Positions 11,995 to 60,529 of a stretch of 64,000 nucleotides of DNA are shown here, in pieces. The position numbers were made by a program, and so were the translations under genes. Each line of letters starts with the position of its first letter. The first letter of the stretch is position 1. The notes under the pieces were generated by a model. It was not told where the DNA came from, searched no databases, and saw only the letters and a list, made by a program, of their open reading frames with translations. Origin of the DNA: Raja brachyura (lineage: Eukaryota); the NCBI GenBank assembly GCA_963514005.1, contig OY740806.1, positions 36,952,001-37,016,000 of the forward strand, given 5' to 3'.

Positions 11995-14765
11995 TTCTAA
12001 AATGTGTATATTTTAATGCTAGGAGCATTGTAAGAAAGGTGGATGAACTTAGAACCTGGATTGACACCTGGAAATATGATGTTGTGGCAATCAGTGAAAC
12101 ATGGTTGCAGGAGGGCTGTGATTAGAAACTAAATATTCCAGGATTTCGTTGTTTCAGGTGTGATAGGATTGGAGGGACCAGAGGTGGAGGTGTTGCATTG
12201 CTTGTCAGAGAAGATATTACTGCAGTGCTTTGGCAGGATAGATTAGAGGGCTCGTCTAGGGAAGCTATTTGGGTGGAACTAAGAAGTGGGAACGGTGTAG
12301 CAAAACTTTTAGGGGTGTATTATAGACCGCCAAATGGGGAGTGAGAATTGGAAGAGCAAATATGTAAGGAGATAGCAGATATTAGTAGTAAGCACAAGGT
12401 AGTGATTGTGGGAGATTTCAATTTTCCAAAAATAGACAGGGAAACACATTCTGTAAATGGGCTGGATGGTTTGGAGTTTGTAAAATGTGTGCAGGATAGT
12501 TTCTTGCAGCAATACTTAGAGGTATCGACCAGAGAAGGGGCAGTGCAGGAAGTCCTGATAGGAAATGAGGCAGGTCAGGTGACGGAGGTATGCGTTGGTG
12601 AGCACTTCGGGACCAGTCATCACAATACCATTAGTTTCAATATAATTATGGAGAGAGTCAGAACTGGACCTAGGGTTGAGATTTTTGATTGGAGAAAGGC
12701 TAACTTTGAGGGAATGCATAAGGATTTAAAAGGAGTGAATTGGGACATTTTGTTTTATGGGAAGGATGTAGAAGAGAAATGGAGGACTTTTAAATGGGAA
12801 ATTGTAAGAGTACAGAATCTTTGTGTCCCTGTTCGGTTGAAAGGAAATAGTAAAAATCGGAAAGAGCCATGGTTTTCAAGGGAAATTGGACACTTGGTTC
12901 GAAAAAAGATAGATATCTACAATAATTATAGGAGGCATGGAGTAAATGAGGTGCTAGAGGAGTATAAAGAGTGTAAAAAGAATCTTAAGAAATAAATTAG
13001 AAAAGGTAAGAGAAGATATGAGGTTGCTTTGGCAAGAAAGGTGAAAGTAAATCCAAAGGTTTTCTACAGCTATACTAATAGCAAAAGGATAACGAGGGAC
13101 AAAATTGGACCATTAGAGAGCCAGAATGGACAGCTATCTGCAGAGCCAAAAGAGATGGGGGAGATATTGAACAATTTATTTTCTTTGGTATTCACCAAGG
13201 AGAAGGATATTGAACGCTGTGAGGTAAGGGAAAAAAGTAGAGTAACTATGGAAACGATGAGATTCAAAGAGGAGGAAGTACTGACACTTTTGAAAAATAT
13301 AAAAGTGGATAAGTCTCCAGGTCCTGACAGGATATTACCTAGGACATTGAGGGAAGTTAGTGTAGAAATAGCAGGGGCTATGACAGAAATATTTCAAATG
13401 TCATTAGAAACAGGAATAGTGCCGGAGGATTGGCGCACTGCGCATGTTGTTCCATTGTTTAAAAAGGGTTCCAAGAATAAACCAAACAATTATAGACCTA
13501 TTAGTTTGACGTCAGTGGTGGGCAAATTAATGGAAAGGATACTTAGAGATAATATATATAAGCATCTGGATAAACAGGGTCTGATCAGGAACAGTCAACA
13601 TGGATTTGTGCCTGGAAGGTCATGTTTGACAAACCTTCTTGAATTTTTTGAAGAGGTTACTAGGGAAATTGATAAGGGTAAAGCAGTGGATGTTGTCTAT
13701 ATGGATTTCAGTAAGGCCTTTGACAAGGTTCCCCATGGAAGGTTGGTTAAGAAGGTTCAATCTTTGGGTGTTAATGGTGGAGTAGCAAGATGGATTCAGC
13801 TGTGGCAGAATGGGAGATGCCAGAGAGTAATGGTGGATGGCTGTTTGGCAGGTTGGAAGCCGGTGACCAGTGGGTGCCTCAGGGATCTGTGTTGGGTTCA
13901 CTGTTGTTTGTCATGTATATCGACGATCTGGATGATGGGGTGGAAAATTGGATAAGTAAGTATGCAGATGATACTAAGATAGGTGGTGTTGTGGATAATG
14001 AAGTAGATTTTCAAAGTCTACAGAGAGATTTGGGCCATTTGGAAGAGTGGGCTGAAAGATGGCAGATGGAGTTTAATGCTGATAAGTGTGAGGTGCTACA
14101 TCTTAGCAGGACAAATCAAAATAGGATGTACATGGTAAATGGTAGGGAATTGAAGAATGCTGTGTAACAGAGGGATCTAGGAATAACTGTGGTAAAGGGT
14201 GGTAAAGAAAGCTTTTGGTGTGCTGGCCTTTATAAATCAGAGCATTGAATATAGGAGTAGGGAAGTAATGTTAAAATTGTACAAGGCATTGGTGAGACCA
14301 ATTCTGGAGTATGGTGTACAATTTTGGTCGCCTAATTATAGGAAGGATGTCAACAAAATAGAGAGAGTACAGAGGAGATTTACTAGAATGTTGCCTGGGT
14401 TCCAGCAATTAAGTTACAGAGAAAGGTTGAACAAGTTAGGTCTTTATTCTTTGGAGCGCAGAAGGTTAAGGGGGGACTTGATTGAGGTCTTTAAAATGAT
14501 GAAAGGGATAGACAGAGTTGACGTGGACAGGCTTTTCCCATTGAGGGTAGGGAAGATTCAAACAAGAGAGCATGACATGAGAATTAAGGGACCGAAGTTT
14601 AGCGGTAACATGAGGGGGAACTTTTTTACTCAGAGAGTGGTGGCTGTGTGGAATGAGCTTCCAGCAGAAGTGGTGGAGGCAGGATCAATTTTAACATTTA
14701 AAAGTAAAGTGGATAGGTATATGGACGGGAAGGGAATGGAGGGGTATGGTCTGAGTGCAGGTTGA
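11995..14765 (+). pseudogene. CR1 ORF2 (AP endonuclease + reverse transcriptase), broken by stops and frameshifts
   Basis: YFNARSI..VAISETWL, GDFNFP, NYRPISLTSVVGK, YMDFSKAFDKV, KYADDTK spread over several ORFs. Confidence 0.9.
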
Positions 14766-20957: not shown

Positions 20958-21160
20958 ATGGCAGGTGAACCAAAGGGGTTTCTCCTTCAGCAGTCAGCCA
21001 TCACCCCAGGTGTGTTTACCGAGGCTGACTTTGTGTCTTTCAACAAGATCGCTTCAGGAAAATTCGCAAATGTCTTCAAAATAAAACACAAAGTGTGGAG
21101 GGTGAACTTGGCCCTAAAGTGCTGCCATTTGTTACGTGAAGAATCATCATCATTTGAAAG
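20958..21160 (+). CDS. ANKK1: ANKK1 exon 1 (kinase N-lobe: Gly-loop IASGKFANV, beta3 LALK)
   Basis: Kozak-like gccATGg start; ends GAAAG|GTGGGT, phase 2. Confidence 0.85.
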
Positions 21161-24100
21161 GTGGGTGGTAGACATTATAGCTACAGTTAGAGATGCATTC
21201 ACTTTTAAACAAAATACAAATTGATAATTAAAACTGCAGTAAGCAAACGTGGATGATATTATTTATATCCAGCAGTCAATTACTGTGTGATAGAAATTGC
21301 TGCAGGCTAGCTTTTGCTTTTTCCTATAATTTGCAAGATTTATCATTTGGATGGCACTTTAAACTAAACAAAACTAAATGTTATTTTAAATTTAGTTTTC
21401 TCGATCAATAGATGAAAGGATGTGGGTGAAGTGGGTGCACCCGCACTGATGATTGTAGCTGCGCCCATCTGAACAATTTAGGCTTGTCACGATTCATGAA
21501 TTTATCGGCCAGTGGCATCTTCCTGTATGAGACTGTAGATGTTGGAGTCATAGTCTCAGGATAAGGGGCGGGTATTTCAGACGGGAGCAAGGGGAATTTT
21601 CTGCAATTAGAGGGCTGTGAATCTTTGGAATTCTCTACTCTGCTGTGGATGCTCATATACTGTGTATAATTAAATCTGGGCAATAGATTCTTGGCTGCAA
21701 GAACAACAAAGTGATATCGGGCAAAGCAGAAAAAATGGAAGTGACATCAATGTTCAGCTGATCTTATTGACAAGTGGAGAATATGAGGTGTCAGAGTTTA
21801 CTCCTGAGTCTATTTCTTATGTTCTTAAGTTTGANNNNNNNNNNNNNNNNNNNNNNNNNNNNNNNNNNNNNNNNNNNNNNNNNNNNNNNNNNNNNNNNNN
21901 NNNNNNNNNNNNNNNNNNNNNNNNNNNNNNNNNNNNNNNNNNNNNNNNNNNNNNNNNNNNNNNNNNNNNNNNNNNNNNNNNNNNNNNNNNAGACTAAGTG
22001 GGACCCGTTGGGTCCCAGCATCACACGGGAGGGCTAGTCCCCCAACGCAATATTCCACCTCTCCACCAAGGTGGGGGGCGGGGGGGTAGCTTTCTGGAGC
22101 ACTAGTATGGGTGTTGTGGGCTGAATAGACTGGTTTCCAGATAGCTAGTATGGACATTGTGGGCTGAATGGATTCTTGGGGTGGCGGCTCAGCCGCTCAA
22201 GCCTGTTGTGCTTGCAGCTCACTCATTCATGGCTGGTGGGCTGGCAGTTGACTCACGGCTATTCCTTGAAATTCCATTTCAAGCAGGGTGCAAGGCCACC
22301 AAATTCAAGTGTAGTTTCTTACCAATTCAAGCAGGGTGCAAGGCCACCAAATTCAAGAGCAGTTTCATACCATTTCAAGCAGGATGCAAGGCCACTAAAG
22401 ACAGTGAATCCTCCATCTTGCAGAGACTGAGCCACACCTACACTTCTGGGTTTTATAGTCCATCCCCCCCTCGCACCAGAAGGGGCATCGCCTTCATGGC
22501 ATGATTGACAAGAGAGAGAATCTCAACATTTTTTAAACACTAATAACTCTTTTTTCATCAATGGGAAAATTCCTCGGCACCTGATGAGCGGAGGGGGACT
22601 CTGAGTAAGATGACCAAAAATCACAGTCGTACCTGGTAGCGTCTTTTCTAAAATCAATATAAAGCACAATAAGGAAGTGGTCGAGATTAGACTTTTAATT
22701 TTATAGAATGCAAGGCAATTTTAATTGGGCAAGGCAACTTTAATTAGGCAAGGCAACTTTAATTGGGCAAGGCAACTTTAATTAGGCAAGGCAACTTTAA
22801 TTAGGCAAGGCAACTTTAGGATTTCCAAACCAAAGGCAACACAGCTTTGGCATTTCCAAAGCAAAGGCAACACAGCTCTAGAATTTCCAAACTATATTTT
22901 CAAACCACATTAAGGGCACTGACAGGTCAGTAAAACCACTTACAGTTTAGTAGACATGTGTTCAGTGTTATTCACAGCTCAGACTGAGAGACGTGACCCT
23001 CTCACTCCCACCATCTTGCAGAGACTGACTGAGGCACAACACTTCCTGGTTTTATAGTCCCTCCGGAAGGGGCGTGGCCTTCAGGAGCGAGAATCTCAAC
23101 ATTTTTTAAACACCAATAACTCTTTTATTTTTTTTATCGATGGGAAAAATCCGCTTGTCCTGCGCAGCGAATGGGGACTCTGAGTAAGATGGCCAAAAAT
23201 CACAGCCGTAAGTGGCAACGTTTTTTCTAAAATCAATATACGGAACAAAGGAAGTGATCAAGGTCAGACTTTTAGTAATATAGATATCGGCAGAGAATTT
23301 ACAGTTAAAATTGTGTAAGTACCGTAAAAATATCGATAATTCTAAGGATAGTAGGAGATAAAAACTGTATCTGCATAAAAATGGTTGAGGGTGGTAGTTT
23401 GGGACATTACCTTTCTTCTTTAACATTACAGGGACATTAAATATCTGATGGAGGTGGCAGGGAAGATGCTGAGAGTTAAGTTCAAGCACATTTTGCCAAT
23501 ATATGGGATTTGTACACGACCAGCGGGAATTGTAATGGAATACTTGGAAAACGGATCTCTGGATAAATTGCTTGTAAAAGATACATTACCTTGGCCAATG
23601 AAATTCCAGATTATTCATGAGACGTCTTTGGGAATGAACTTCTTGCACAGTATGAAGCCACCACTACTTCACTTGGAGTTGAAAGCTAGAAACATACTCC
23701 TGGATGAAAACCTCCACATCAAGGTTGCTGTGTTGATTGTCTGACTGGAACTCTCATACCTGACAGGTTTAAGGCAGCTAGTGTGATATCAATTAGTTTC
23801 CAGCCTTGGTTCCATGATATCTCTCATCTCTGCATAGGATATTTGCAGTTTCAACTTTCATTTCAGCGTACAATGCAGTCTGACACCCCAGTGAAGTGTT
23901 GAGGGAGTGCACCATCATCAAGATTTTAAAACTAAATCCTTTGCTAATGTCCAAAAGATAGATTGCATTACAGATTAAACCAGTATAATGATATTCATTC
24001 AATTTATCATAAGAGATAAGCTACAGAATATCAATGCAGCGTTGTGCTAAACCAGTCAGTTAACAGCACAATCTCTGGCAGGTGTTGAGAGTTCATTAGT

Positions 24101-27100
24101 TGTCCCAGTGGGTGAACCTGTTCATTGTCACTGTGGTGGGGGTTCATTCCTTGTCACATGACTTCTGTATCCCACTCCACAGCAGGTCAGGCTACATCTG
24201 TGGAAAGAGAAATCGAGTGAACGTTTCATGTCACTGACTCTTCATTTGAGCAGACGAGAGAGTATATGCAGTCAAATGCAGAGGACGTGGGGGGGGGGGG
24301 GGGGGAAGCACCAAGATCGAGTACAAAGTAGTTGAGATAAATTGAGCAAAATGGTGATAATGTGAGGTGAAAGTGTGTGACGGTCAAACAAGTAAATATA
24401 GTTGAGAAGATGTGTAAATGAGATTAGACAAGATCATTCACCCAAACTTGAAGTTCGGTGCAATGTGCCCAGTAAAAAGATGAGAAGATAGATTTTTATT
24501 GTGAAGTACTTTTCAAAGTATTTGGTGAAAATAAGGCAGACACTGTGAAATTCATTGTGTGATGTGCCATGAAGGCTATTCAGTGTGTGATGTGCCATGA
24601 AGGCCATTTTGCAAGTTATCACATGTATGCATCAAAGTGGAAAAAAAACAAGTCTCAGCAGGAAGGAGTCTTGTCCAAAGAAAGTTAGAGAGTAATTCCT
24701 CGTGGCATCATGATCACAGTGTCTGCTGCTGTAGGCAGCTGAGGAATCTCCTGCAACCTCGAGTCTCCAACGCTGCAGGTTAAACAGGCAATCGGTGAGC
24801 TGTCCGTGCGGTGTTGGGCACCATTCCAGTGTTTCTCCTCCACATTGTCTTCCAGCACAATGTCTAGCCATCTGTCAAAGGTGTGGGAGCCCACTCCTGC
24901 TTCCCGCCTGCCAATGCCGCAGAAGGCAAGGCTGGCATTTGGCCATATGACTTGAGACAGTGCCATCTGCTGGTGATTGCTGGCATTACTCAATAACGTG
25001 CAAGGGCACTCTTGCTAATTCACCTTCCTTCATATAATTTGAAATGCCACGCAGTTACCATGTGTAAATGTATTGGAGGCCTGAGAATGCCACAGCTTAC
25101 GTACACAATGTTTTGTGTGTCAGACATGTCTCTCTGCCACTGCCCTGGAATAAGCTTGCCATGTCCATTATATGTTCCCATTTCTAAGGTCCAGGTGGTG
25201 GCTTTTAACGCCTTGCATTGAACGTCATTGGACCGTTACTGGAGTCCGACAACCAAATGCAGTGGGATAGAGAAGTAACGTGACAGAATCTCTCTCTAAA
25301 TGGTGTTTGGCATAATCGTTGGCACAGTGGAGTGTGGACTTCGGCATTTCTGCCTTTGTGCTGCCCTTAATTGTTAAACCAATACATGCACGTAACACCA
25401 TAATGATTTTATTCATCAAAGGGACACTTGTGGGAAAGAAAATGTTTGTGATCACTAACAAGCATATTTTTATATTATATAGATAGCAGATTTCGGATTA
25501 TCAAAATGGGAAGATAGCGTGAGTGATATGGAACAAATTGAAAGGTCTGCTATGAGAGGAACCATCATCTACATGCCACCAGAATTGTCAAATAAACCTT
25601 CTGGAGTCAAGCATGATGTTTACAGGTCAGATTTCATTGAGTTACAGGATCAGGTTAAGTCTTTAAGTTTAATTTTTAGTAGCAGTCTTACTGGTATTAT
25701 TGGAATTCAGCATAGTCAGAATTGTTGTGGTTAGGTGTGAAGTTAAAGGAGACTCTTGGTTAAAGGTTGCTGCATTAATTACTTGCTATGATTTATACAT
25801 AACAATGAGAGCTGAATTCAAAAGAGCCTCATTGACTATAAATTCCTTCTGGAAAGACTGGAATAGTGAGAGGTGCTACATGGATGCCCTGATGAAACAT
25901 CAACAACTTGAACTGTTGTCTAGTTTCCCGTTCTGGGGTGGTGCCTGTCCTGAGAGGTTCCACATTTTGTTTTTGTTTCAGATTTCCAGCATTCACATTT
26001 ATTTTGTAATTCTCCTTTACTGTAAGGATGTGCAATGTTTGTTTTTGTTCTTTCCATTTTCTTCCAAATGTGCAGTTTGTGACTGTTTGCTTTATGCTGC
26101 TTCATTTGGCCCTTGCTCTTTGTTTGATCATCGCTCCATGAACACAGCACTATCTCTGAATAAAAAACCTAATCTTAGGAAATCATCAGCATTCTGCTAT
26201 GCTGAAAGTTATGTTCTCATGCACTACCTTCTCTGAGATCTGTCAACAGCTTGTAGCTGATGTGATGAGGTGAATGCCAAATAGTCCCTAAGTTCTGATA
26301 ACAAAGTTACTTCCTGAAGCAATAGTTTTTCACCACACTAAAATAAACTGCTGGAAGAACTCATGCAGGAAAAATGTTCCCAATGTTGGGTCAGTCCAGA
26401 ACCAGAGGCCACAGTATTAGAATAAAGGGGAGATCATTTAAGACTGAGCCGAGAAAAAACTTTTTTACCCAGAGAGTTGTGAATTTATGGAATTCCCTGC
26501 CACAGAGGGCAGTGGAGGCCAAATCACTGGATGGATTTAAAAGAGAGTTGGATAGAGCTCTAGGGGCTAGTGGAGTCAAGGGATATGGGGAGAAGGCAGG
26601 CACGGGTTATTGATAGCGGATGATCAGCCATGATCATATTGAATGGCGGTGCTGGCTCGAAGGGCCGAATAGCCTCCTCCTGCACCTATTTTCTATGTAA
26701 CTCAGTAAGCCAGGCAGCATCGGCTGGGGGAAATGGACAGACAATTTGGGACCTGGGCCTTCTTCAGAAGAAGGGTCCCAACCCAATACTGTCTCCAAAG
26801 ATGCTGCCTGGCCTGCTGAGTTCTTGCAGCAGTTTGTTTTTTGCTCTAGATTCCAGCATCTGCAATACCACATGTCTCTAGTTATTCCTCTTGGATTGTT
26901 CACTGATTCAAACCATGTCTTTGAAATGTTTTATATTGCTTTATATCTAAATGTTATTATTGCATTGAAAATGATTTGTGATGGTGATGATTGAAGCATT
27001 TGACCTCATTGATTACATTTGAATGAAAGTAGATAATAGGAAATCTGCAATGTTCTCGGCATTTTGACTAGTAACACCTTTCCCATTAGTAACTGCGGGA

Positions 27101-30100
27101 CAGATTTCATATTCAATCTTGAATAAATTGTTTATTTCATTTTATAACAACCCTTAAACCTTCTATATAGTTCCTGAACTGCATTCCACTTACTTATCCA
27201 TCAAGCACCTGAGGAAAGAAATATAGTTATTCCAGCATCTGTGACGTTTTGATGTGACAGAACATTTCTGGGACTAAAGTGATACGACGTAAATTCAATG
27301 GAAATTCATATATTTTTTAATTACTCTATTCCACAAGGATAACAAAGTCTATTGCTGCCATATGTCAAGGTGTCTCAATGTATCTTTCACTGAAGTACCA
27401 CCTTTGAGGCACAGTCATGTAGGTATTGTGTCAGGCTCTTTGCAGCCATGAAGTTCAAACAAACAGCCATATGATCAACCAAATAAGTTTTGGTTGTGTT
27501 AATTGAATGATAAATGCTGACTAGGACATAAGGAGGGATTCCTCTACTTTGTACGTTAACCTTTGAGAAGATTCAATGAAAAGGAACTGCAGATGCAGGT
27601 TTATACCAAAGATAGACAAAAAGTGCTGGATTAACTCAGCAGGTGAGGCAGCATCTTTGGAGAAAATTGGCAGGTGACGTTGCGGTTCGGGGACTTTCAG
27701 ACTGAAGAAAAGTCCTGACCTGAAACTTCACTGATCCATTTTCTCCAGAGATGCTGTCTGATCCGCTGACCGAATCCAGCACTCTGGAAGAAGGCACCTT
27801 CAACGTTGTAGAATCCCTAAAATACTGCAGTGTAGTTCCTGGCTGTTTGTACACAAGCCTATGGATTTCCCTGTCTTCCAACTCAGGGTCAAGAGAGCTC
27901 CTCACTAACCACAGAGAATATGCCAAGGAGTACCTGAATAAATCAGCACCTGAGGGAAGGGACAGAAGCATATGAAGGAGAAAGGAAAAAAAGAAAAGAT
28001 TAATAAAGTTGGATGAAATCAGATTGGGCAATTGGAAACACACACCCTCATGCTGATGGATGAAGCTAGTGGGAAAAAATACCAATCTCCTCGTGAATCT
28101 TTGCTACACATTCCATGTTTGTTAAACTTCATGCTGGCAACAATAACACTGCCACTAAACTAATTTACATAACATTATTATTTGGGGTGAAACAAATCTT
28201 AAAAACCTACAAGCAAACAGATTTTGTCACTAATATTCATAGAAGCTAGTCATATTTCAGTGAATTAGAGCAGCTGTATCATTTAGCAGTCAGAATGTAA
28301 GCACTTATTATGCAAATTAATATTAAAGCTTTCAGTGCCCTCTAACCATTTAACGCGACACAAAGGTATGGTACGTGCATCAATACTTGTTTACCCAACA
28401 TCTCTCTGCTCAGCCACCTACATTACCCACTAGTTTGACAACAGTTTTATTTTAAAACCTTAAATCTTTTATTCAATGTTTTTTTCAAGAATGTTCTTCC
28501 ACAGTCCCATTCTTCCCTACATCTGTAATCTTTAGCCGCTGAGATCATTGCTTCTCTCCCATTCTGTTGTGAATCGATTCATCGTAGGTTGTTATTCCTT
28601 CAGCCCCCTAGGTATAAAGGTTTAGAATTCCCTCCTTGGACTACATACTCCACCCTCTCTCCTACTCAATATTCCCCACAAAGCCTACTGTGCCTCTAAG
28701 ATAGGATAGTGACACTGAGAGTAATTTTGGATGGGCAAATGGATATGCTGGGAATGGATGATGTACAGGCAGGTAAGATAAGGTCTTGGCATCATGTTCG
28801 GCACAGACTTCCTGGTCTGAAGGGCCTGTTCTAGTGTACACAAAAGGCTGGAGAAACTCAGCGGGTGCAGCAGCATCTAAGGAGCGAAGGAGATAGGCGA
28901 CGTTTTGGGTCGAGACCCTTCTTCAGACTGGTTAGGGATCAGGGAAACGAGAGACATAGACGGTGATGTGGAGAGATAAAGAACAATGAATGATCACAGA
29001 GGGGGAGCAGTTAGAGAGGAAGTTGTGAAACTGTCTTCCTGTTCTTGTGTGCTATGTTCTATAACCAAGATTTTGAATCTCTTTTAAGATCTCATGTGGT
29101 TCAATGTGAACTTTTGTTTCAGAACACACTTGTAAAGTATATTGAGAGATTTTTGTATAATACAATTAACAGTTGATGCTTTTGTTGAATTGTGCTGGTG
29201 TCATTTCTTTGCCCGGTTAAAGAAGATTAGCATTTGATTTGCGCTGGACAACTGTGCTGTCCTGAAGAAACTTACGGTGAATGTTTTTTTCAGCTTCTCC
29301 ATTGTGATGTGGGAGGTCGTGACTCAGCAGAAGCCCTATGCTGGTAAGACCATCACTAGCTCTCCTTGCAAGAACATCCCTACAGTCATCATGGCAACAG
29401 CTAATCCCTTTACAATGGGATTTATGATTTACTTTAAGAAGGATGCATTATTATTATCATTTAATTATGAGCACTAACATTAATTTTGTTTGAGTTTTGT
29501 GGTCGATGTACATGGATGTGTTGAATACAATTAAGTTATCTGCTTGATTTTCAACTTCATTACAGAGGTACTTGGTGATCCCTGTAGAAATCATAGAATG
29601 TTGCTCCTCAGAAAATAATTCAGTTGTTTACCTGATTCATCATGGCATTAAATCATTTTACTTCCTCTGAGACTGCACTGGTGAACATGTTTATTGATCT
29701 GTTTAGGAAAAGTAGTTTAGCAGCTGCATCTTATATTAATGCAAAAGAAACATTGACACAAATTATACCTGTGCAGTGAAAGCTATTTCATGTAAAACGA
29801 AACGCAAGCATACACTTCTGAATATATTCTAAATGATTCTGGCCAACACGTCAACTGTTTATTCCTTCTTATTTTTCTCAAATTACTGTGAGGTAATGTG
29901 TTTATAATTAATTCTGCCTTTGTTGAAGAGCAGATTTGATACGTGATTCAAGTCATGTTGTGCTTTGGCAGGTTAAAGAGAGTGAAGCAGTTCCCATTAG
30001 ATTTGATTCAGGGACCAAGAGATGGTGGTGATGATCTAGACTGTCTCCAGGGATAGTTTAGTCCAGTTTAGTTTAGTTAAGAGATACAGCGCTGAAACAG

Positions 30101-33100
30101 GTCTTACGTCCCACCGAGTCCGTGCCGACCTGCGATCCTCGCAGACTAACGCTATCCTACACACACTAGGGACAATTTACAATTTTACGAAGCCACTTAG
30201 TCTACCGTCTTTGTAGTGTGGGAGGAAACTGGAACTCCCAGAGAAAGCCGGCGCAAGTCACGGGGAGGTCGTACAAACTCCGTACAGACAGCACCCGTAG
30301 TCAGGATCGATCCTGGGTCTCTGGCGCTGTCAGGCAGCAACTCTACCGCTGAGTGGGTAGTAGAAACAAGGAATGGATGGGTAGAAGAGAAATAATGTGC
30401 AAGGCTGTGGAGAAAGAAGAGGGAATGGAACTAAATAGATTGCTCTACAGTGAGCAGCCATGGACTCGGCAAGATGAACACTTTCCTTCTCTTCTGTAAC
30501 AGCTCTATGATTCTCATTTAACAACACAGTGTGTGTACGTGTGTGTGTGTACGTGTGTGTGTACGTGTGTGTACGTGTGTGTGCGTGCTTTTGTGTACGT
30601 GTGTGTACGTGTGTGTACGTGTGTGTGTGCGCGTGTATGCGTGTACATTTGCAAAATACCTGTTCTTGGTAATGTTATATTTGTATACTTAAGCAACAGG
30701 ACTCCATCTTGAGTCGTACACAGTTTTTATTAAGACAAGAGCTGGTGTATTTCAGTATCCAAATGCTTCCATTTACCGTTCTACATGTCAGGAACTGACG
30801 TACTGGCTGTATTTGTGAAAGTTGTGGCAGGAGAGAGACCGTGCTTGAAAATAATCCCAGAAGACGGTCCTCCAGGATGCGCACAGGTGGTTGAACTGAT
30901 GCAAAGATGTTGGAACCGGGAACCAAAGAGACGACCTGCATTCTCAGGCAAGCTGGTTATTGATGATGGGGCCAACTCTTTACAGGGAACTGCAGCTTTT
31001 GTTCACAAATAGTTCTAAGCTAGGTGTTGAAGGAGGGTCCTGACCTGAAACAACACGTTGGTTGGAGAGAGAAACAGAGTTAATGTTTTGGTTTATGGTC
31101 TTTCATCAGAGCAACCTAATGAAAGATCACCAAGCTAAAATATTAGAGAGCAGAAACAAGGAACTGCAGATGCTGGTTTACACTGGACTAACTCAGTGGC
31201 TCAGGCAACATCTCTGGAGAACATGAATAGGTGACGTTTAGGGTCGGGACCCTTCTTCAGACTGATCAGTCCAGACCTTTGTGTCGCTATTCAGTAAAGT
31301 ATTAACTCTGTACTTCCATCCAATGCTGCTTGGCCCGCTGAGTATTTACAGTATTCCCTGCTTTAATTAAAACCAGTAAATCAATCATCATTTTTTTATC
31401 ATTTTCTTTTCTAGAAATCGTTGTGGAAACTGAAATGTTGTGCAGCCTGTTACAATTCCCAGATATTGACGGCAGTAAGACAACTGAGAAAGCAAGAATG
31501 TGTCTGCATTCACCACATAGTGGCCTTCACGTACGCCGATCTCCTGTGGGAGCCTTTATCTTCACAAAAAACTGTGTTCAATAGAAAAATAAGTAAAATA
31601 ACAAACTGATGAATCTAGAGAAGTTGCAGAACAGATTCACAAGGATGGACAGAGTAGAGAGTTGCAGCCTAGTTCCAAGGCTACAAGGGTCAGCCACTAG
31701 AGGGCATAGGTTTAAGGGAAGAGGGAAAAGATTTAAATGGGATCTGAGGGCCAAGTTCTTTCACACGGAGGTAAAGAGAAGTGGTCGAGGTGGGTACGAT
31801 TACAACATTTTAAAGGCATTTGGACATGTACAAGTCTTTTCCGCGGATAGGAACATTTTAGAGGGATATGGGCCAAACGCAGGCAAATGGGACTAGTATA
31901 GACAGGCGTCTTGGTCAGCATGGATGAATGGGGCCGAAGGGTCTGTTTCCATGCTGTGCCACTCTATGAATCTAACAGTAGTTTCGCAACTGAGATTAAG
32001 CCATAGTAATTCATAGTAAATTAGATAATTTTAAACAGTAGTTTATCCTTTAATAGATGAAAATGGGCAGTTAATTTGTATACAATATGATCCCCAAAAC
32101 ATAAGAGGGCAGTCATTTTTTTGATATGTTGAATTTGGATAAGTGAACCTCAAAATAGTGCAGTAGTAATTTCCATATGTGCCTGAGGGAGTATTAAAGA
32201 AGTTTTGAAAAACCTCTTGTGAATGGTGGTGTCTTTAACAATGCAGTGCTCTTTATTACAACAATTAAGTATTCATCAATATGTTTATGTTCAATTATTC
32301 ACAATTATCGGATTCAGAATCACGAGTGCCAGCCACAATAATGCAGCTGAGGCATGGATAGGTTGTTTTTATATCTGCAGGTAGGAAGTGCTGACAGTCA
32401 GATGAAATAAAGTAAGAAAGTATGGCTAATTCACTCATGAATGTTCAAAACATGCGTGTCCTGGCAAGGCAAGAACTTGTTCACCATCTTCAACAGCCCT
32501 TGAGGAGCTGGCTTTACCTTGCACTAAATGTTATTCCCTGATGTATCTGCACTGTAAATGCCTCGATTGTAATCATGTATTGTCTTGCTGCTGACAGGTT
32601 AACACGCAACAAAAGCTTTTCACTGTACCTCGGTACACGTGACAATAAACTAAACTTAACTGAACTGGTGGTGAGCCACGAGCTCTTCTGGCGAATGTAC
32701 CTGAGTCCTACTTTTGTAGGGAGTTTCAGGATTTAAGGGCCTGTCCTACAAGCATGCAACTCCATGCGATGAGCGCGACCTAACGTGGTCGCTTGAGCCG
32801 TCCGGCGTCGCGGGGCCGGTCCCACTTCGATCGCCGGAGCCGTTTCTCAAGGGAGAACAATTAAAGTTCCCAGCCACTAAAATTAAAAACATAAAAGTTA
32901 AATAAATAAAGTTTTATTGACACCAGTGCAATGATGCTGTATTAAACAGTATATTATACAGCCTTTAGTGTTTTTAGATTCTTTAGCATGCAGTAACAAA
33001 AATAAACTTATAGACATTAAAAGTTATTAAAGAGATCTTTAATTCTGTTCTGCTTATGGGAAATTGACCAGATACAGATTGCAGATAGTAGACAGTGAAT

Positions 33101-36100
33101 TAGATGATTGCACACATCAACATTGACTTGTATCTGATGTGCAATTCAGACAGCAAACATTCATCACTTACAAAATGACACTGACTTAGTAAGTTGCCAC
33201 AGAAGGCTGTGGAGGCCAAGTCAACAGATATATTTAAGGCAGTGATAGATTCTTAATTAGTATGGGTGTCAGAGATTATGGCGAGAATGCAAGAGAATGG
33301 GGTTGGAGGGAGATATAGACCAGTCATGATTGAATGGCGGAGTAGACTTGATGGGCCGAATGGGCTAATTCTGCTCCTATAACTTATGACCTTATGACTA
33401 AGTAGTTTTTGAGAAAATCAAATGAACAAAGATTTAGAATTCCCAAACAACAATCAGCATTCTTATTTTTTCCTTTCTTCTAGAATGGAACAATAATTTC
33501 AGAGATTGCAAGTTGTGAATTGCAGAAGTTGAGTCTGTTGTCGGGGACTGAAACCGATGGTGAGTATGTACGTGCTCCCCAGAGTAAGATTGGACCATAT
33601 TCAGTGGTGTTTTGAAGCATTAGAGAACCAGGTCCGCCTTGGGTTTCAAACATCTGATTTTGTTTTTATCTGCAGGGGCTGTGCAAGCTGAGTTCAATCA
33701 TTTAAGGCTGAGGTTAATGTATTTTAAGGTGATAACAAAGTTATTGAGATCAAATAGGAAAGTGGATGAGATAGTAATTAGTTATGATATTACTGAGTGG
33801 TGGAGCATGCAGCAGACTCCTCCGTCATGCACTCTCACTCCATTCATTTCTTCTCTGTATTATAAATCATTGTGGGCCAATCCACTCTGCAATAGCTGCA
33901 ATAATAATTGGAATCATATCTTCATGAACCTATTAAAAAGCGAAAGGATCCTGCAGCTTCTGGAAATCTGAGAAAAAACAGAAATGGTTCAGCAGGCCAG
34001 GCAGTATCTGGAGAGACAAGCAGAGACAAAAGCAGAGTTGCAACTCATCCCAGCAACTAATGACCACTGTGTATTTCATGGGTTTATCATTGGTTACAGT
34101 AAAGCTGAGTTGAGTTCTGCTTGCCAGATTATCACCACGACCTGTGTGCTGGAACCTTCAGCAAAATACAAACTGTTGGGGGAACTCAGTGGGTCTGTGG
34201 AAGAAATGGACAGGCGACATTTTGGGTCGGGAACCTCCTCAAGACAGCCAAAACAGTGCCTGCCCATATTCTACATCGATGTTGCCTGACCTGAGTTGCT
34301 CCAACACAGCTTCAAAACTCTGATTTGAAATATCGAGTTTTAGTTTCTTATTCACAATCTTGTTAACAGATAGCAAGAACTGTGGGAAATGATGCCTGAA
34401 AATTAAATAAACATACAAAATGCTATAAATACTCAGCCAGCCAAGCTGCTTCTCTAAAGGGACCTATGTTCACCTAGGGACAAGTTCACCTATGCATGTT
34501 CTCCAGAGATGCTGCCTGACCCGCTGAGTTACTCTGCACATTGTGTCCTGCCTCGCCAGTAAGACTTGGTCTTGGTTTTCTGTGCTTTGCTTGTCATCTC
34601 TGATACTCTGGTGAGATTTGATGCAAAATGGTTTGTGGATTAATGTTCGAAAAATCAGGTCAGTCACTGTTCTCTCATGAAGGGTCATTGACCAGAAATG
34701 TTGATTCTATTTCCCTCCACAGATGCTGTCTGACCTGCTAACTATCCTCAGCAGTTTACATCTTTATGCAGGATCATATTGAATGACAGAGTGGTATTGC
34801 ACCGTCCTTTCCCTGTTTCTGCTCATAACCCTCTCTACTTATTGCAGATGAAATCTCCATTGATTCTAGAAGGGAACTGTTGCACTCTCTACTCGAAAGT
34901 GACCTCAGTCATTTGAAGAGGATATTCAGAAAAGAGCATGTTAGCCTGAACTTTGTGGAAGACTACACTTTGATGCACTTGTCCGTTCTGACTGGAGATG
35001 TGGAGTTTGTTCAGCTGGTTCTGGAGTCTGGGGGATGTGTAAATGATCAGACATCGCAAGGGACCACACCTCTGATACTGGCTGTGCAGTACAGGTTTGT
35101 GCATCTGTGTAACTTACTGATCCAGGAGGGAGCCATTGTCAATCTAGTGGATGAAGACAAATGGGCACCTCTGCATTTTGCATCTCAGAATGGGGATGAC
35201 CACATTGCCCGGCTGCTCTTGGACAAGGATGCCCAGGTCAATGTGAAGGAGGCTGATGGATGGACACCACTCCACCTGGCCTCCCAGAACAGCCATGAGA
35301 ATGTGATGCGAGTGCTCTTCACTCGAGGTGCAGACACCAGCTCACTGGACCATGAACATTGCACATGCCTTCACCTTGCTGCATATTATGGTTACTACAG
35401 CATCACCAAGCTACTGATTGCTCAAGGAGCCAATTTAAATGAAGCACAGACTGGCCTGAAGACGCCACTACATCTAGCAGCTGCAAGGGGTTTCTTCAGA
35501 GTGGCGAGGTTACTGGTGAACAGTGGAGCTGATATCAATAGTCTAGACCACACTCATTACACCCCGCTGCATTTGGCAGCATTGAATGGCCACACTGGCA
35601 TCTGCCGGCATCTCTTGAAGCATGGGGCTGATGTCCAGCAAAAGTCCTTGCAGAATTGGACCCCCTTGCACCTTGCTGCTCTGAAGGGTCACACATCAAC
35701 TGTACGTCTTCTGATTGAACATTTATCTGATCTTAATGTTGGTGGAGACCTTGAGTGGACTTCACTGCACCTGGCAACGTGCCACAACCAAGAGGATGTT
35801 GTCTCCGAGCTCCTGGAGAGAGGTGCCAATCCCAATGCCACTGAAGCTTCAGGATGGACACCGCTGCACCTGGCTGCCCACGGAGGCAGATTCCGCTGCC
35901 TTGTCAAGCTGCTGGACCACCAAGCCAATGTGAATGCTGTCAGTCACACCGGATGGACATCGCTGCATCTGGCAGCCATGAGTGGGGGTGTGAACATCGT
36001 AAGGATGTTGATCATGCAGGGAGCTGACCTGATGGCCCGAGACCAGTATCTCAACACTCCCCTGCAGTTGGCTATGAAGCACCGGAACCACAACGTGGCC

Positions 36101-36142
36101 AATGTACTCTCAGCTGAAGAAACAGCAAAGCATGATTCATGA
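20958..36142 (+). CDS. ANKK1: ANKK1 (ankyrin repeat and kinase domain containing 1, RIPK4 paralogue); join(20958..21160,23432..23723,25483..25625,29294..29343,30792..30947,31415..31530,33484..33559,34848..36142), ~776 aa
   Basis: Eight exons join in frame (2331 nt) with AG acceptors and GT donors (one GC). Motifs [39 protein letters not shown] and [13 protein letters not shown] resemble human ANKK1; ~12 C-terminal ankyrin repeats; adjacent to TMPRSS5. Confidence 0.9.
21835..21990. other. assembly gap (N run)
   Basis: Run of n characters. Confidence 1.
21991..23284 (-). mobile_element. non-autonomous Helitron
   Basis: Minus strand starts a|TCTATATTA; GC hairpin GGGACCC-AAC-GGGTCCC lies ~10 nt before the end ACTTAGTCT, where the expected CTAG terminus is cut by the gap; internal 19-bp tandem repeat at 22712-22815. 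Confidence 0.7.
23432..23723 (+). CDS. ANKK1: ANKK1 exon 2 (alphaC to catalytic loop)
   Basis: tacag acceptor; [12 protein letters not shown]...[18 protein letters not shown]; donor AAG|GT. Confidence 0.92.
24958..24975 (-). promoter_or_regulatory. candidate CTCF site
   Basis: Minus strand CCAGCAGATGGCAC matches the CCASYAGRKGGCRS core. Confidence 0.45.
25483..25625 (+). CDS. ANKK1: ANKK1 exon 3 (DFG, activation segment, PPE)
   Basis: [47 protein letters not shown]; tag| and |gtcaga. Confidence 0.92.
26363..26700 (+). mobile_element. CR1 3' fragment
   Basis: [19 protein letters not shown]...[14 protein letters not shown]. Confidence 0.85.
28835..28995 (-). mobile_element. PLE terminal repeat fragment
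   Basis: Near-identical to ~62815-62970. Confidence 0.7.
29294..29343 (+). CDS. ANKK1: ANKK1 exon 4
   Basis: 50-bp exon [16 protein letters not shown]; tttcag| and |gtaaga. Confidence 0.92.
30060..30350 (-). mobile_element. tRNA-derived SINE (HE1-like) with (TAAAC)n tail
   Basis: Minus strand cagcggtagagttgctgcc...ggatcgatcc A/B-box-like head. Confidence 0.7.
30527..30646. repeat. (GT)n/(GTAC) microsatellite
   Basis: Visible. Confidence 0.95.
30792..30947 (+). CDS. ANKK1: ANKK1 exon 5 (kinase C-lobe; GC donor)
   Basis: [18 protein letters not shown]...[17 protein letters not shown]; donor CAG|GCAAGC gives the phase needed for exon 6. Confidence 0.85.
31415..31530 (+). CDS. ANKK1: ANKK1 exon 6
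   Basis: Strong polypyrimidine+tag acceptor; [13 protein letters not shown] resembles human ITIETDILLSLLQ; donor CAC|GTACGC, phase 0 (3' boundary less certain). Confidence 0.75.
31610..31970 (+). mobile_element. degenerate CR1 3' fragment
   Basis: [31 protein letters not shown]. Confidence 0.75.
32736..32843. mobile_element. truncated PIF/Harbinger-like MITE end
   Basis: TTA+AGGGCCTGTCC; reverse complement of ~40290-40398. Confidence 0.7.
33484..33559 (+). CDS. ANKK1: ANKK1 exon 7 (linker)
   Basis: ttcctttcttctag| acceptor, G|GTGAGT donor, open frame [25 protein letters not shown]; phases 0/1 bridge exons 6 and 8. Confidence 0.75.
34848..36142 (+). CDS. ANKK1: ANKK1 exon 8 (~12 ankyrin repeats, stop)
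   Basis: ttgcag| acceptor in frame with ORF 34880..36142; repeated TPLHLAA...LL..GA motifs. Confidence 0.95.
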
Positions 36143-36381
36143 CTTACCTTGTGATGGGCTGCTCACAAACACAAAACACTTGATGTTGGGGATTTAAAAT
36201 CTGCTAAGGGATTGACCTCCCACATCTGAATCTCTGCTTGAATTGAGACCAGTGTTGAATGTAAACTTCCTCAGAATGACAGGGTGCCCAGAGGAAGAAC
36301 AGTGGAGGACCCGGCGTGGGGGGGGGGGGGGGGGGGGCAACCATGGACCCGGCGTGGGGGGCAATAGAGGATCACATTTAA

Positions 36382-36387
36382 AATAAA
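36382..36387 (+). promoter_or_regulatory. candidate ANKK1 polyadenylation signal AATAAA
   Basis: AATAAA ~240 bp after the stop codon, with T-rich sequence downstream. Confidence 0.35.
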
Positions 36388-36984
36388 ATCTAACATTTTC
36401 CATTTTATCACAGTGTTCTTTTACTAAATTATTGTACATGCTTGATAGACACAAAGTACTGGAGGAACTCAGCAGCTCAATGCATCACTAGAGAACATGG
36501 ATAGGTGATGCTTTGGATCAGGACTCTTCTTCAGACTTCAGTTTGAATAAAGATCCCGGCCCAAAATTTCACCCATCCATGTTCTCCAGAGATGCTGACT
36601 GACCTGTCGAGTTTCTCCAGCATTTTGTGTCTATCTTCGGTTTAAATAAGCATCTGTAGTTCCTTGTTATTCCACCTTTTGATGCAGTAATTAGCCCCAA
36701 AACATTGAGCAATGTGAAATTTGTCATAGAGTCATAGAGTGATTCAGCGTGGATACAGGCCTCTTGTCCCATGCTCACACTGGCCAACAATGTCCCAGCT
36801 ACACTAGTCCTACCTTCCTGCACTTGGTCCATATCCCTCCAAACCTGTCCTATCCACAAATTTGTCTTTTTACTTACAGTGTGTTGTAAAGAGTTGATGA
36901 AAAATATCAGCTGAGTCTGGGTATCAACCATCTTTGGATTGTCCCCCATTACAATAGATTAATCTCTACCAATCCATGGCACTT

Positions 36985-38998
36985 GGAAAGAGCCATGGTT
37001 TTCAAGGGAAATTGGACATGTTTCGAAAAAAGAGAGATATCTACAATAATTATAGGAGGCATGGAGTAAATGAGGTGCTAGAGAAGTATAAAGAATGTAA
37101 AAAGAATCTTAAGAAATAAATTAGAAAAGCTAAAAGAAGATATGAGGTTGCTTTGGCAAGAAAGGTGAAAGTAAATCCAAAGGGTTTCTACAGCTATATT
37201 AATAGCAAAAGGATAATGAGGGATAAAATTGGACCATTAGAGAGCCAGAATGGACAGCTATCTGCAGAGCCAAAAGAGATGGGGGAGATATTGAACAACT
37301 TATTTTCTTCGGTATTCACCAAGGAGAAGGATATTGAACTCTATTGAGGTAAGGGTAAAAAGTAGAGTAGCTATGGAAACTATGAGATTCAAAGAGGAGG
37401 AAGTACTGACACTTTTGAAAAATATAAAAGTGGATAAGTCTCCAGGTCTTGACAGGATATTCCCTAGGACATTGAGGGAAGTTAGTGTAGAAATAGCAGG
37501 GGCTATGACAGAAATATTTCAAATGTCATTAGAAACGGGAATAGTGCCGGAGGATTGGCATACTGCGCATGTTGTTCCATTGTTTAAAAAGGGTTCCAAG
37601 AATAAACCAAGCAATTATAGACCTATTAGTTTGACGTCAGTGGTGGGCAAATTAATGGAAAGGATACTTAGAGATAATATATATATAAGCATCTGGATGA
37701 ACAGGGTCTGATCAAGAACAGTCAACATGGATTTGTGCCTGGAAGGTCATGTTTGACAAACCTTCTTGAATTCTTTGAAGAGGTTACTAGGGAAATTGAT
37801 GAGGGTAAAGCAGTTGTCTATATGGATTTCAGTAAGGCCTTTGACAAGGTTCCCCATGGAAGGTTGGTTAAGAAGGTTCAATCTTTGGGTGTTAATGGCA
37901 GAGTAGCAAGATGGATTCAACAGTGGCTGAATGGGAGATGCCAGAGAGTAATGGTGGATGGCTGTTTGTCAGGTTGGAAGCCGGTGACCAGTGCGGTGCC
38001 TCAGGGATCTGTGTTGGGTCCACTGTTGTTTATCATGTACAGCAATGATCTGGATGATTGGGTGGAAAATTGAATAAGTAAGTATGCAGATGATACTAAG
38101 ATAGGTGGTGTTGTGGATAATGAAGTAGATTTTCAAAGTCTACAGAGAGATTTGGGCCATTTGGAAGAGTGGGCTGAAAGATGGCAGATGGAGTTTAATG
38201 CTGATAAGTGTGAGGTGCTACATCTTGGTTGGACAAATCAAAATAGGACGTACATGGTAAATGGTAGGGAATTGAGGAATGCTGTGGAACAGAGGGATCT
38301 AGGAATAACTGTGCATAGTTCCCTGAAGGTAAAATCGCATGTAGATAGGGTAGTAAAGAAAGCTTTTGGTGTGCTGGCCTTTATAAATCAGAGCATTGAA
38401 TATAGGAGTAGGGAAGTAATGTTAAAATTGTACAAGGCATTGGTGAGACCAATTCTGGAGTATGGTGTACAATTTTGGTCGCCTAATTACAGGAAGGATG
38501 TCAACAAAATAGAGAGAGTACAGAGGAGATTTTCTAGAATGTTGCCTGGGTTCCAGCAACTAAGTTACAGAGAAAGGTTGAACAAGTTAGGTCTTTATTC
38601 TTTGGAGCACAGTAGGTTAAGGGGGGACTTGATTGAGGTCTTTAAAATGATGAAAGGGATAGACAGAGTTGACGTGGATAAGCTTTTCCCATTGAGGGTA
38701 AGGAAGATTCAAACACGAGGGCATGACATGAGAATTAAGGGACAGGTGTTTAGGGGGAACATAAGGGGGAACCTCTTTACTCAGAGAGTGGTGGCTGTGT
38801 GGAATGAGCTTCCAGCAGAAGTGGTGGAGGCAGGATCAATTTTAACATTTAAAAGTAAAGTGGATAGGTATATGGACGGGAAGGGAATGGAGGGGTATGG
38901 TCTGAGTGCAGGTAGATGGGACTAGGGGAAAATAAATGGTCGGCACGGACTGGAAGGGCCGAGAGGGCCTGTTTCCGTGCTGTAATTGTTATATGGTT
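36985..38998 (+). mobile_element. 5'-truncated CR1 LINE, near-identical to the ~12860-14850 copy
   Basis: ORFs 37153-38925 align almost residue for residue with 13029-14765. Confidence 0.93.
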
Positions 38999-39843
38999 AA
39001 TCCAACAACTGTAGACTGAGTGGTAAAACTGATATGGCTATCAAAGAGAAGTAGGTTCGTTTCTCAATTTTTCAAACTCTTTTGTCTTTCTCGGTAATAA
39101 AGAAACTTGGAAAGTAAAATAACCTGTTTCAAGGGGTGACAAGGCAGATGAAACTTCCCAGATATATACTCAACAAGTTGAATATGACTCTCATGAACAA
39201 GGCAGTTTGAAAAACAATGTTTATTTTGCCAGCTCCCACATCTTCGGAGCAAGAGCCATCATTGCAGCACTCCAAATGAAGTGAAATACAAGCTAAAAAG
39301 ATCATTTTTATGTTTTGCTTCAGTCCTGATTTGAACATTTTCACTGAACCTGATCATCAGCTATGATGGCCAAAGTGATTTGTTCATCTTGTTATTTGTG
39401 TCAAAACAGATGCAGATTCTCAAACAATGGATTGAAGGAATGTACAAAACATCGAGGTGCACAGTGGTACACTTTTAGTTCCACGATGTTGGTATTTAAT
39501 GAGGAAAACCACTTGTTTGTGAGAGTCAATGATGCAGAGTTAAGGAGCCAACATGAAAGTCCACTGATGTCCATTTGGGAAAACCAGGTCTCTGAGCTTA
39601 GCCTGGGGAAGCACAATGGTTCTCACTCCATGGGTCGGATGCAACAAATACCGTTAACCTTCTTTACACTGAGGGTTGTTCCATTCTGCTTCTGTAAAGC
39701 ATTCTTCTTGTTGCTCCAGTAGATGAGTGAATGCTTTCTGAGCCGTTGGGTTGTGCTATTCCTAAGAAAGAGAACACGTCACAGAATTAAACTGATCGTC
39801 ATTTAGGCACAAGGGAACAGGTGTAGCTTTTAGCTGCTGCTTT

Positions 39844-40398
39844 AGGGCCTGTCCTACCAGCATCCGACTCCATGCGATGAGCGCGATCAAATTAGAAGCG
39901 GGGGACGCGCGGAGGTCAGGTGATTCCTGTACAGGACCGTTCCCAACAGCATGCGCCTGCATGCGGCAAGTGCGACCAAAACCGGCAGTGGGGGCCGCGC
40001 GGAGGTCGGGTGAGTGGCGCAATGCGGCGCAAAGTGAGGTGAACTTGGAACGAAGTCTTAAAGGTAAGTTCGCCAGGACAGAGAGGGGCACACAGAGAGG
40101 GGCACAGAGGCACACACACAGAGGGCCACGGAGCCACACACATAGAGGGTCACGGAGGCATGACGTCGAGGCGGTGTGTAATGCGTCGAGGCGACTGCGA
40201 GCCGACAAGCCGTTGCCGCGCGGAATTTTTGAACACGGTCAGTTTTTCGGAGCCCCGCGCGATGTCGGGACGAACTCCGCACAATTCCGCACGGCTCCGG
40301 CAATCGAAGTGGGACCGGCCCCGCGACGCCGGACGGCTCAAGCGACCACGTTAGGTCGCGCTCATCCCATAGAGTTACATGCTGGTGGGACAGGCCCT
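39844..40398. mobile_element. PIF/Harbinger-like MITE
   Basis: ~42-bp imperfect TIRs AGGGCCTGTCCTACCAGCAT.../...ATGCTGGTGGGACAGGCCCT flanked by TTT/TTA; CpG-rich. Confidence 0.8.
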
Positions 40399-41809
40399 TT
40401 ATGGGAAATAGGAGTGAGAATGGGCCTGATCAGGCATTGAACAAGGTCATTGATTTCCTTGACCTCTGTCCTCCACATTCCTTCATGGTCCCATTACTGT
40501 TGATTATTCCACAGTATAAACATGTGTCTCAGCTTGAGTGTGTTCAATGCCAACGCCTACAGCCTTCTGAGAAAATAAATTCCTGCTAATCTTAAATGGC
40601 TGACCTCTTCCTCCAGCACTGTGTTCAACTTCCCATTTCTCCCACCATCGGAAATCCTCGCAGCATCTACCCATCATGATTCCTTGCACGCCTAATAACT
40701 TTCAGTGAAATCAATAAAAAGAATAACAGTGGTGCAGCAGGTAAAACATCTGCCTCCCAGAACCAGAGATCGAGGTTCATCGCTGTTAGTGTGGACCTCC
40801 CTGTGACTGTATGGGCTTCCCACACATTTGAAAACCATATAGTTCAAGTTAGACACAAAAACCTAGTATAACTCTGCAGCTCACTTAATGCGTCAAAGAC
40901 AGTCCTTGTCCGTAGCAACGTGGCTTCACCTGTTTGATCTCAGTGATAAACAAATGGCACCTTCTGCTCTGGGATCTGTCAACATTGGTACTGGAAAACA
41001 ACTGCCCATGAGAGCTTCCATTAAACAACCCAGAGCCTTCACCAGTGGGAAAGGATTACACTCCTCAATATTAAGATGGGTGTGAATCATCAAAGCCATT
41101 TGTTATAATGAATGATGTGCGTCCAGGAAGCAGACATGACAACCTTAACCTCGAGAACATCACGCACAATCAGACATTTTCAGGGATCAGCAATGTTTGA
41201 TGGATCTTTGGGATGGGATTGGGGTGACCCTCTGTTTCCTGGTTCCCACATTCACACATGGTGGGTGTGTGGAACAAGCTGCCAGAGGGGGTCAGCTTCA
41301 TAGCAAGTATTATGAAGGTGAGTACATTTAAAAGATTTGGATGCATTTTCAAGAGAAAGTTAGATTTAGCTCTTAGGGGTAAGGGAATCAAGGGATACGG
41401 GGAAAAAGCCGGAACGGGCTATTGATTTTGGATGATCAGCCATTATCATATTGAATAGTGGTGCTGGCTCGAAGGGCCGAATGGCCTACTCCTGCACCTA
41501 TTTTCAATGGTTCGATGGTACATGGATAAAAAAGGTTTAGAGGGATATGGGCCAAAGGGCTTGTGTGTGTAGATGGGGCCATCTTTGTTGGTGTGGGCTT
41601 TGGGCCAAAGGGCCTGTTTCCATGCTGTACGATGCCATGACATACCACAGCAGTTGAGTTCAGATCAGTGAGAGTCACATAAATAACAATCACTGTTGAA
41701 AATGACATTGATCTTCTAAAACTGAGATGCAGTTTCCACATCAGTCTAGGGTATGCTGATCAGGTACAAATACCATCATGGTGTGCTTTGACTATCTGCC
41801 TTAAGTCGG

Positions 41810-42239: not shown

Positions 42240-60529
<18,290 letters not shown>

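Follow-up and report, generated by a model that had tools for sequence, protein, structure and literature searches.

ANKK1 (also RIPK5 or SgK288), described in human, mouse and zebrafish, is organized with a kinase domain followed by ankyrin repeats and is encoded by eight exons, an organization shared by its skate orthologue, which falls in the same clade. No substrate or mode of action is established for it in the excerpts of PMC12119088 and PMC8861280, and human RIPK5 does not activate NF-κB and has no known function (PMC12119088, excerpt). A scaffold role in cells has been proposed for human ANKK1, to which the skate gene is orthologous: a kinase-domain-only isoform pulled down the RhoGEF FARP1, the effect on migration was unchanged in a Lys51Arg variant, and the authors propose ANKK1 as a Wnt/PCP scaffold, with the FARP1/WGEF evidence coming from one group and from human cell lines (PMC11477271, excerpt). 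Loss of zebrafish ankk1 alters dopaminergic markers and drug responses (PMC8861280, excerpt). Human ANKK1 has been scored as keeping 9 of 12 critical residues (PMC9573974, excerpt), and in the excerpts of PMC9573974, PMC10492769 and PMC7177674 no lineage is said to have a pseudokinase ANKK1; no description of catalytic loss in ANKK1 was found in the literature, with a mention in kinome-survey supplements being possible.

The closest paralogue is RIPK4 (40% identity over 752 aligned residues in Amblyraja, with the same domain order), which differs in carrying both the HxD Asp and the alphaC Glu in all 120 control rows (the best 120 of 453 matches, with no named neopterygian row among them); a kinase-dead RIPK4 knock-in is lethal in mice (PMC10492769, excerpt). 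RIPK3 provides two parallels. Feline RIPK3, like ANKK1, has a lineage-restricted catalytic loss, with non-catalytic function retained (PMC12119088, excerpt), and the mouse RIPK3 HxD mutant D143N, altered at the same site as ANKK1, is dead but as stable as the wild type and scaffolds with its partners bound (PMC13434183, excerpt). The RIPK3 loss is confined to one lineage and has a RHIM-dependent output, whereas the ANKK1 losses number at least three and involve a protein with ankyrin repeats. Nucleotide-binding pseudokinases of the HER3/ERBB3 type lack the alphaC Glu and the catalytic Asp and keep the beta3 Lys, the catalytic-loop Asn and DFG. Skate ANKK1 has the same residue pattern, but HER3 is a receptor tyrosine kinase with a shown role as an allosteric activator, and for ANKK1 both ATP binding and an activator role would be hypothetical. 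Because neither pseudokinases nor lineage-specific loss of catalysis among RIP kinases is new, the skate locus represents an extension and not a new kind of system.

The window, a 64,000-nucleotide stretch of the genome of the skate Raja brachyura, contains a complete 776-amino-acid (aa) ANKK1 frame in eight exons (20958-36142; Table 1) with no internal stop, and the Amblyraja and Leucoraja ANKK1 records are also 776 aa long. An initial annotation of this DNA had described the full ORF and all splice sites as intact. The ORF is indeed preserved, and all introns end in AG; six of the seven donors are GT, and the intron 5 donor is a GC (30948-30949) that had gone unmentioned. The RIP-type kinase at the N terminus and the ankyrin repeats at the C terminus form the ANKK1 domain order (from Pfam matches in the Amblyraja orthologue and window exon 8), and the best solved kinase match of skate ANKK1 is RIPK4, followed by RIPK2. 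Exon 2, for which 37 of 66 candidates in a protein search passed, best matches skate ANKK1 records (95% and 92%) and then those of an electric ray and of sharks, at 67-75%. A search with full-length ANKK1 matched mostly ankyrin proteins and contributed nothing further. In a maximum-likelihood tree built from 51 kinase domains, the window groups with Amblyraja and Leucoraja, then Rhinoraja, and then Narcine (100/99), within a chondrichthyan ANKK1 clade (100/99) that is far from the RIPK4 clade (100/100).

A search of the genome yields five matches: ANKK1 exon 2, an intact RIPK4 exon on contig C12, a pair of RIPK2-like exons, and a further exon of RIPK type. Of the non-ANKK1 matches, the three that include the catalytic loop (RIPK4, RIPK2, and the third RIPK exon) all have an intact HxD Asp. 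The tree position and the separate RIPK4 exon rule out a misassigned RIPK4 and agree with the original naming of the gene as ANKK1, and there is no second intact ANKK1 copy among the five matches. The further RIPK exon (L003; G000:C17:16316239-16316538) is 44% identical to the query, has an intact HxD motif, and is possibly the RIPK2B paralogue described in PMC12119088 (excerpt).

Table 1. Coordinates of the skate ANKK1 exons and key kinase-domain features in the window
Feature	Position	Strand	Remarks
ANKK1 exon 1	20958..21160	+	Start codon, Gly-rich loop, beta3 Lys; 3' end is the loose end joined to exon 2 in the run X8 contig
Gly-rich loop ASGKFA, residues 32-37	21051..21068	+	Lys35 skate-specific; Ala37 common to sharks
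beta3 Lys54, retained	21117..21119	+	Lys in 153/154 ANKK1 rows having a residue there
ANKK1 exon 2	23432..23723	+	alphaC, hinge, catalytic loop; X8 and X12 contigs show it joined to exon 3 by splicing
GTG, Val76 at alphaC-Glu position	23454..23456	+	Val in 6/6 other skate rows and 0/150 remaining ANKK1 rows
GAG, Glu150 at HxD catalytic Asp position	23676..23678	+	Glu in 6/6 other skate rows
Lys152-Ala153-Arg154-Asn155	23682..23693	+	Lys and Mg-binding Asn retained; Pro153Ala skate-specific among chondrichthyans
ANKK1 exon 3	25483..25625	+	DFG (25489-25497), activation segment, PPE
ANKK1 exon 4	29294..29343	+	Model; start is the loose end behind exon 3 in the run X8 contig
ANKK1 exon 5	30792..30947	+	Followed by GC donor; model aligns gap-free to skate records
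ANKK1 exon 6	31415..31530	+	Kinase domain end and linker; model aligned to skate records
ANKK1 exon 7	33484..33559	+	Linker; model aligned to skate records
ANKK1 exon 8	34848..36142	+	Ankyrin-repeat array and stop codon; Pfam Ank, 10 stretches

Two catalytic residues are replaced in the kinase domain. The catalytic-loop codons (23670-23693) are CAC TTG GAG TTG AAA GCT AGA AAC, coding for H-L-E-L-K-A-R-N, and the alphaC codons (23448-23468) are ATG GAG GTG GCA GGG AAG ATG, coding for M-E-V-A-G-K-M; codon reading and alignment columns thus bear out the earlier proposal that GAG stands in place of the HxD Asp and GTG in place of the alphaC Glu. Exon 2 aligns gap-free to RIPK4 chain 5WNI, with Glu150 falling on residue 143, which in 5WNI is Asn, the residue natural in neopterygian ANKK1; Fay et al. 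used D143N for RIPK4 and D145N for RIPK5 as kinase mutants (PMC12119088, excerpt). Column 76 is Glu in 120/120 RIPK4 rows and 147/156 ANKK1 rows and the neighbouring column 75 is variable, so that Val76 replaces the conserved alphaC Glu, and a register shift in which Glu75 is the alphaC Glu is excluded. Lys54, His148, Lys152, Asn155, DFG (168-170), PPE, and Asp210 are all present, consistent with the initial description of the beta3 Lys, DFG, and PPE as intact. The residues expected of an active kinase are therefore split, with the beta3 Lys54, the catalytic-loop Asn155, and the DFG Asp168 in place and the alphaC Glu (Val76) and HxD Asp (Glu150) missing. Skate ANKK1 qualifies as a pseudokinase by the sequence definition (the Lys, HxD Asp, or DFG Asp missing from an intact and expressed gene), where "expressed" refers to splicing in contigs of relatives from runs whose RNA status is a guess. 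The ASGKFA Gly-loop, also remarked on in the initial annotation, is present but mostly not peculiar to skates: most ANKK1 rows (145/156) have Ala in place of the first Gly, the third Gly is replaced in 12/12 chondrichthyan rows, and Lys35 is the sole skate-specific loop change.

Both Glu150 and Val76 are found in skates of other genera (Amblyraja, Rhinoraja, and Leucoraja) and in three further 726-aa Logan proteins from 2.3- to 2.6-kb contigs, a transcript-like size, which we infer to derive from spliced skate transcripts. A contig of run X8, from another organism, joins exon 2 to exon 3 at a GT-AG intron, has loose ends into exons 1 and 4, and differs from window exon 2 at three positions, all of them listed and none in either lesion codon. 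A contig of run X12 has the same exon 2-exon 3 joint, and run X14 covers the catalytic-loop stretch with two differences, one of which is among those listed and lies outside the GAG codon. Runs X13, X22, and X23 gave no sequence over that stretch, which is no evidence of absence. The table of differences stops 82 rows short, so runs X5, X9, and X12 are weaker witnesses than X8, and the RNA status of these runs is a guess. All 25 sampled words of exon 2 occur in runs of two studies, one of which may be the source of the assembly, with no RNA run among those listed. With both residues in three other skates and in spliced transcripts, the lesions are real and are neither an assembly error nor a private allele, explanations that had been raised at the outset, that no finding favors, and whose probability is now negligible. 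As a separate observation, a contig of run X12 joins position 23474 to exon 3 via an internal GT donor (window 23475-23476) that is stronger in that organism; this skip, seen in one contig, is in frame and would remove 83 residues including the catalytic loop, and is a possible kinase-disrupted ANKK1 isoform.

Loss of the catalytic Asp extends well beyond skates. Among 156 tabulated ANKK1 rows (bird-heavy, with some duplicates and partial models, and with one source listing giving the best 120 of 562 matches), the HxD residue is Asp in 125, Asn in 24, Glu in 6, and Lys in 1, compared with Asp in 120/120 RIPK4 rows (the best 120 of 453 matches). Asn is present in 21/21 named gar, bowfin, and teleost rows, in two further teleost-like rows, and in the horn shark, and also in eight more neopterygian cluster members; Lys is present in the electric ray Narcine and Glu in the skates. 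All lungfish, tetrapod, bichir, and sturgeon rows have the Asp, as do 6/7 shark rows, and mammal, bird, amphibian, lungfish, bichir, and sturgeon rows carry both the HxD Asp and the alphaC Glu, in contrast to Glu and Val in the skate. Retention is more uniform for the beta3 Lys and the DFG Asp (153/154 and 153/156 ANKK1 rows, respectively), with Hemiscyllium and two Chiloscyllium species having Asn for the DFG Asp. On the tree, three changes are needed for Asp versus its loss, or four when the bamboo-shark DFG loss is counted, and a single origin of all Asp-less ANKK1 is rejected as a one-clade topology (p-AU 8e-49). The HxD Asp has thus been lost independently at least three times in fish ANKK1, and the pseudokinase state, as defined from sequence, is a recurrent fate of this protein. 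The initial annotation had called the lesions lineage-specific, which is correct for the exact substitutions, Glu150 and Val76 being skate-only, but not for loss of the HxD Asp, which recurs in neopterygians, Narcine, and the horn shark, with the bamboo-shark DFG loss in addition. The notable result is the repeated loss of the catalytic Asp in fish ANKK1 compared with none in RIPK4, for which a single-species framing is too narrow. No stingray, sawfish, or chimaera ANKK1 rows are among the matches listed (the best 120 of 562 in one listing), and the batoid residues fit either one loss, passing from Asp to Glu to Lys, or two.

Several other departures from kinase consensus are present in these alignments. 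In bamboo and epaulette sharks (P0013, P0435, and P0436) a separate ANKK1 lesion is fixed, with NFG in place of DFG and with Gln-Glu in alphaC. The activation-segment GT-motif Thr, which normally contacts the catalytic Asp, is Asn in 20/20 neopterygian rows examined (e.g., P0075, P0126, and P0022), and the neopterygian ANKK1 Gly-rich loop is degenerate. Private DFG lesions are DVG in Rhinoraja and DIG in one catshark species.

The skate ANKK1 is a single intact gene, and its kinase domain is likely catalytically dead and kept as a folded protein-binding scaffold together with the ankyrin repeats. The absence of two catalytic residues and the repeated HxD loss in fishes together point to a scaffold rather than an enzyme, as do the intact eight-exon frame, splicing in relatives, fixation of the lesions across skates, the conserved fold, and the absence of HxD losses among the RIPK4 rows; the sequence, tree, and reads thus favor the scaffold role suggested in the initial annotation. 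Efficient phosphotransfer would not be expected with a displaced catalytic base and no possible salt bridge between Lys54 and alphaC. The domain is nonetheless predicted to remain stable, because the ANKK1 losses mostly hit the HxD Asp and spare the beta3 Lys and DFG Asp; the K51A (beta3 Lys) and D161N (DFG) mutants of RIPK3 are unstable and D143N is stable (PMC13434183, excerpt), which offers a reason why the losses fall mostly where they do. By analogy, skate ANKK1 may recruit partners as human ANKK1 reportedly does (the RhoGEFs FARP1 and WGEF, in Wnt/PCP regulation of actin). Binding of Mg-ATP may be retained, with Lys54, Asn155, and Asp168 kept, but in skates it has only about an even chance because of Lys35, Ala37, and Val76. 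Against a dead scaffold, the Asp-to-Glu change retains a carboxylate and Glu75 adjoins the lost alphaC Glu. Catalysis is probably still selected in other lineages, because lungfish, tetrapods, bichirs, sturgeons, and 6/7 sharks keep the Asp, and it may not be wholly dispensable.

The lesions could alternatively reflect neutral decay under relaxed selection in a gene heading for loss, as ANKK1 has been lost in monotremes and lagomorphs (PMC12119088, excerpt). Chondrichthyan ANKK1 does evolve far faster than RIPK4 (skate-shark exon 2 identity of 67-75% versus 94-96%), private lesions such as those of Rhinoraja and the catshark exist, and the exon 3 differences listed have no synonymous excess (5 nonsynonymous and 1 synonymous, small counts). 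However, in exon 2 the differences listed for three runs number 4 nonsynonymous and 7 synonymous, giving a rough omega of 0.16 from tiny counts, and skates are 72-79% identical to sharks in the kinase domain, compared with 66-71% in the ankyrin region. With the species tree fixed, the ratio of kinase to ankyrin branch length comes to 0.52 for the skate stem, to 0.45-1.65 among skates, to 1.52 for the batoid stem, and to 1.16 for the neopterygian stem; decay of the skate kinase domain is no faster than that of the ankyrin repeats, and there is no collapse. Every skate record has an open frame and splice sites, spliced transcripts are present, the neopterygian Asn form persists from gar to cichlids, and loss of zebrafish ankk1 has phenotypes (PMC8861280, excerpt), making decay very unlikely. 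Conservation in both RIPK4 and Asp-bearing ANKK1 defines 102 core positions, 27 of which are in the ATP/catalytic cleft. Six core positions (35, 76, 106, 150, 153, and 222) differ in skates while most sharks keep the conserved residue, and five of the six are in the cleft (p 0.005), with the cleft set having been defined after the lesions were known. The same test finds no cleft enrichment in neopterygians (5/19, p 0.61).

A dead domain could also serve as an allosteric dimer partner, for which HER3 and KSR are precedents, pairing back-to-back with RIPK4 or with itself and tuning the activity of its partner. HER3 likewise lacks the alphaC Glu and HRD Asp, and Trp47, Lys84-Phe85, Asp159, and His163, which we take to be the RIPK dimer face, belong to the core positions that skates and neopterygians retain. 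The same residues have structural roles too, however, and Lys84 is Asn in Narcine, Heterodontus, and Pristiophorus. RIPK4 does need dimerisation for activity (PMC10492769, excerpt), but in the literature excerpts ANKK1 is mainly neural and myogenic and RIPK4 epithelial, no skin phenotype is reported for ANKK1-deficient mice, and no ANKK1-RIPK4 interaction was found, so a dimer partner seems improbable. A comparably small chance attaches to retention of low or altered activity, in which Glu150 acts as a weak base, Glu75 or another residue places Lys54, and slow autophosphorylation matters in vivo. The retained Lys54, His148, Lys152, Asn155, DFG, and PPE, together with fixation of the Glu throughout skates without drift, are consistent with such activity, and HER3, CASK, and JAK2 JH2 are weakly active despite degenerate motifs. 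In Csk, however, an Asp-to-Glu change at the HxD site cuts kcat by orders of magnitude. Moreover, skates carry further cleft changes, other lineages have Asn or Lys at the HxD site (Lys in the sister batoid), and Asn is the residue substituted as standard to make RIPK1-5 kinase-dead (PMC12119088, excerpt). Literature on RIPK dimer-face residues or Csk D314E was sought, and nothing was found.

The dead-scaffold reading has consequences beyond skates, as repeated fixed loss of the catalytic Asp in an intact gene is an evolutionary argument that the essential job of ANKK1 is non-catalytic. We lean slightly towards a broader view in which ANKK1 has undergone repeated conversion from kinase to pseudokinase, with dead forms in the lineage of gar, bowfin, and teleosts (about half of all vertebrate species, with zebrafish presumably among them), in skates, an electric ray, the horn shark, and bamboo sharks, and in which its core role in every lineage, the human one too, is that of a scaffold independent of kinase activity. 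The Asp is absent from all neopterygian rows examined, and fish ANKK1 models probably study a dead kinase; if so, the zebrafish ankk1 knockout phenotype reflects loss of a natural pseudokinase. Orthologue pairs of one live and one dead form, such as sturgeon versus gar and shark versus skate, would then let the purpose of ANKK1 catalysis be tested directly and would serve studies of pseudokinase origin as natural pairs. ANKK1 carries TaqIA, which is among the most studied addiction-associated variants, and the question of kinase or scaffold for this orphan, disease-linked protein becomes directly testable.

ANKK1 is syntenic with TTC12, DRD2, and TMPRSS (PMC5900934). In the skate, the minus strand carries a TMPRSS-like gene with a trypsin domain, whose end is ∼6 kb beyond the ANKK1 stop (window 36142-48820), and the last exon of a D2-like receptor (L027; G000:C26:37294862, plus strand) lies ∼307 kb downstream, with no DRD2 between ANKK1 and the trypsin-domain gene; a genome search with Pfam 7tm_1 does not list DRD2 among its matches. 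On the plus strand, 45 kb upstream of the window start (G000:C26:36907005), is an exon with TPR repeats, which we take to resemble TTC12. The gene order around skate ANKK1 appears to differ from that in human, and the human ANKK1-DRD2 arrangement, presumably tail-to-tail, appears to be rearranged. The window also contains ordinary repeats, namely remnants of LINE-type reverse transcriptases and of a Tc1/mariner transposase (12345-14765, 37120-38925, and 43629-44432), as well as a 191-aa Ser/Thr/Glu-rich open frame on the minus strand (57154-57729) that has no Pfam match and is possibly a mucin-like stalk exon of the TMPRSS-like gene.
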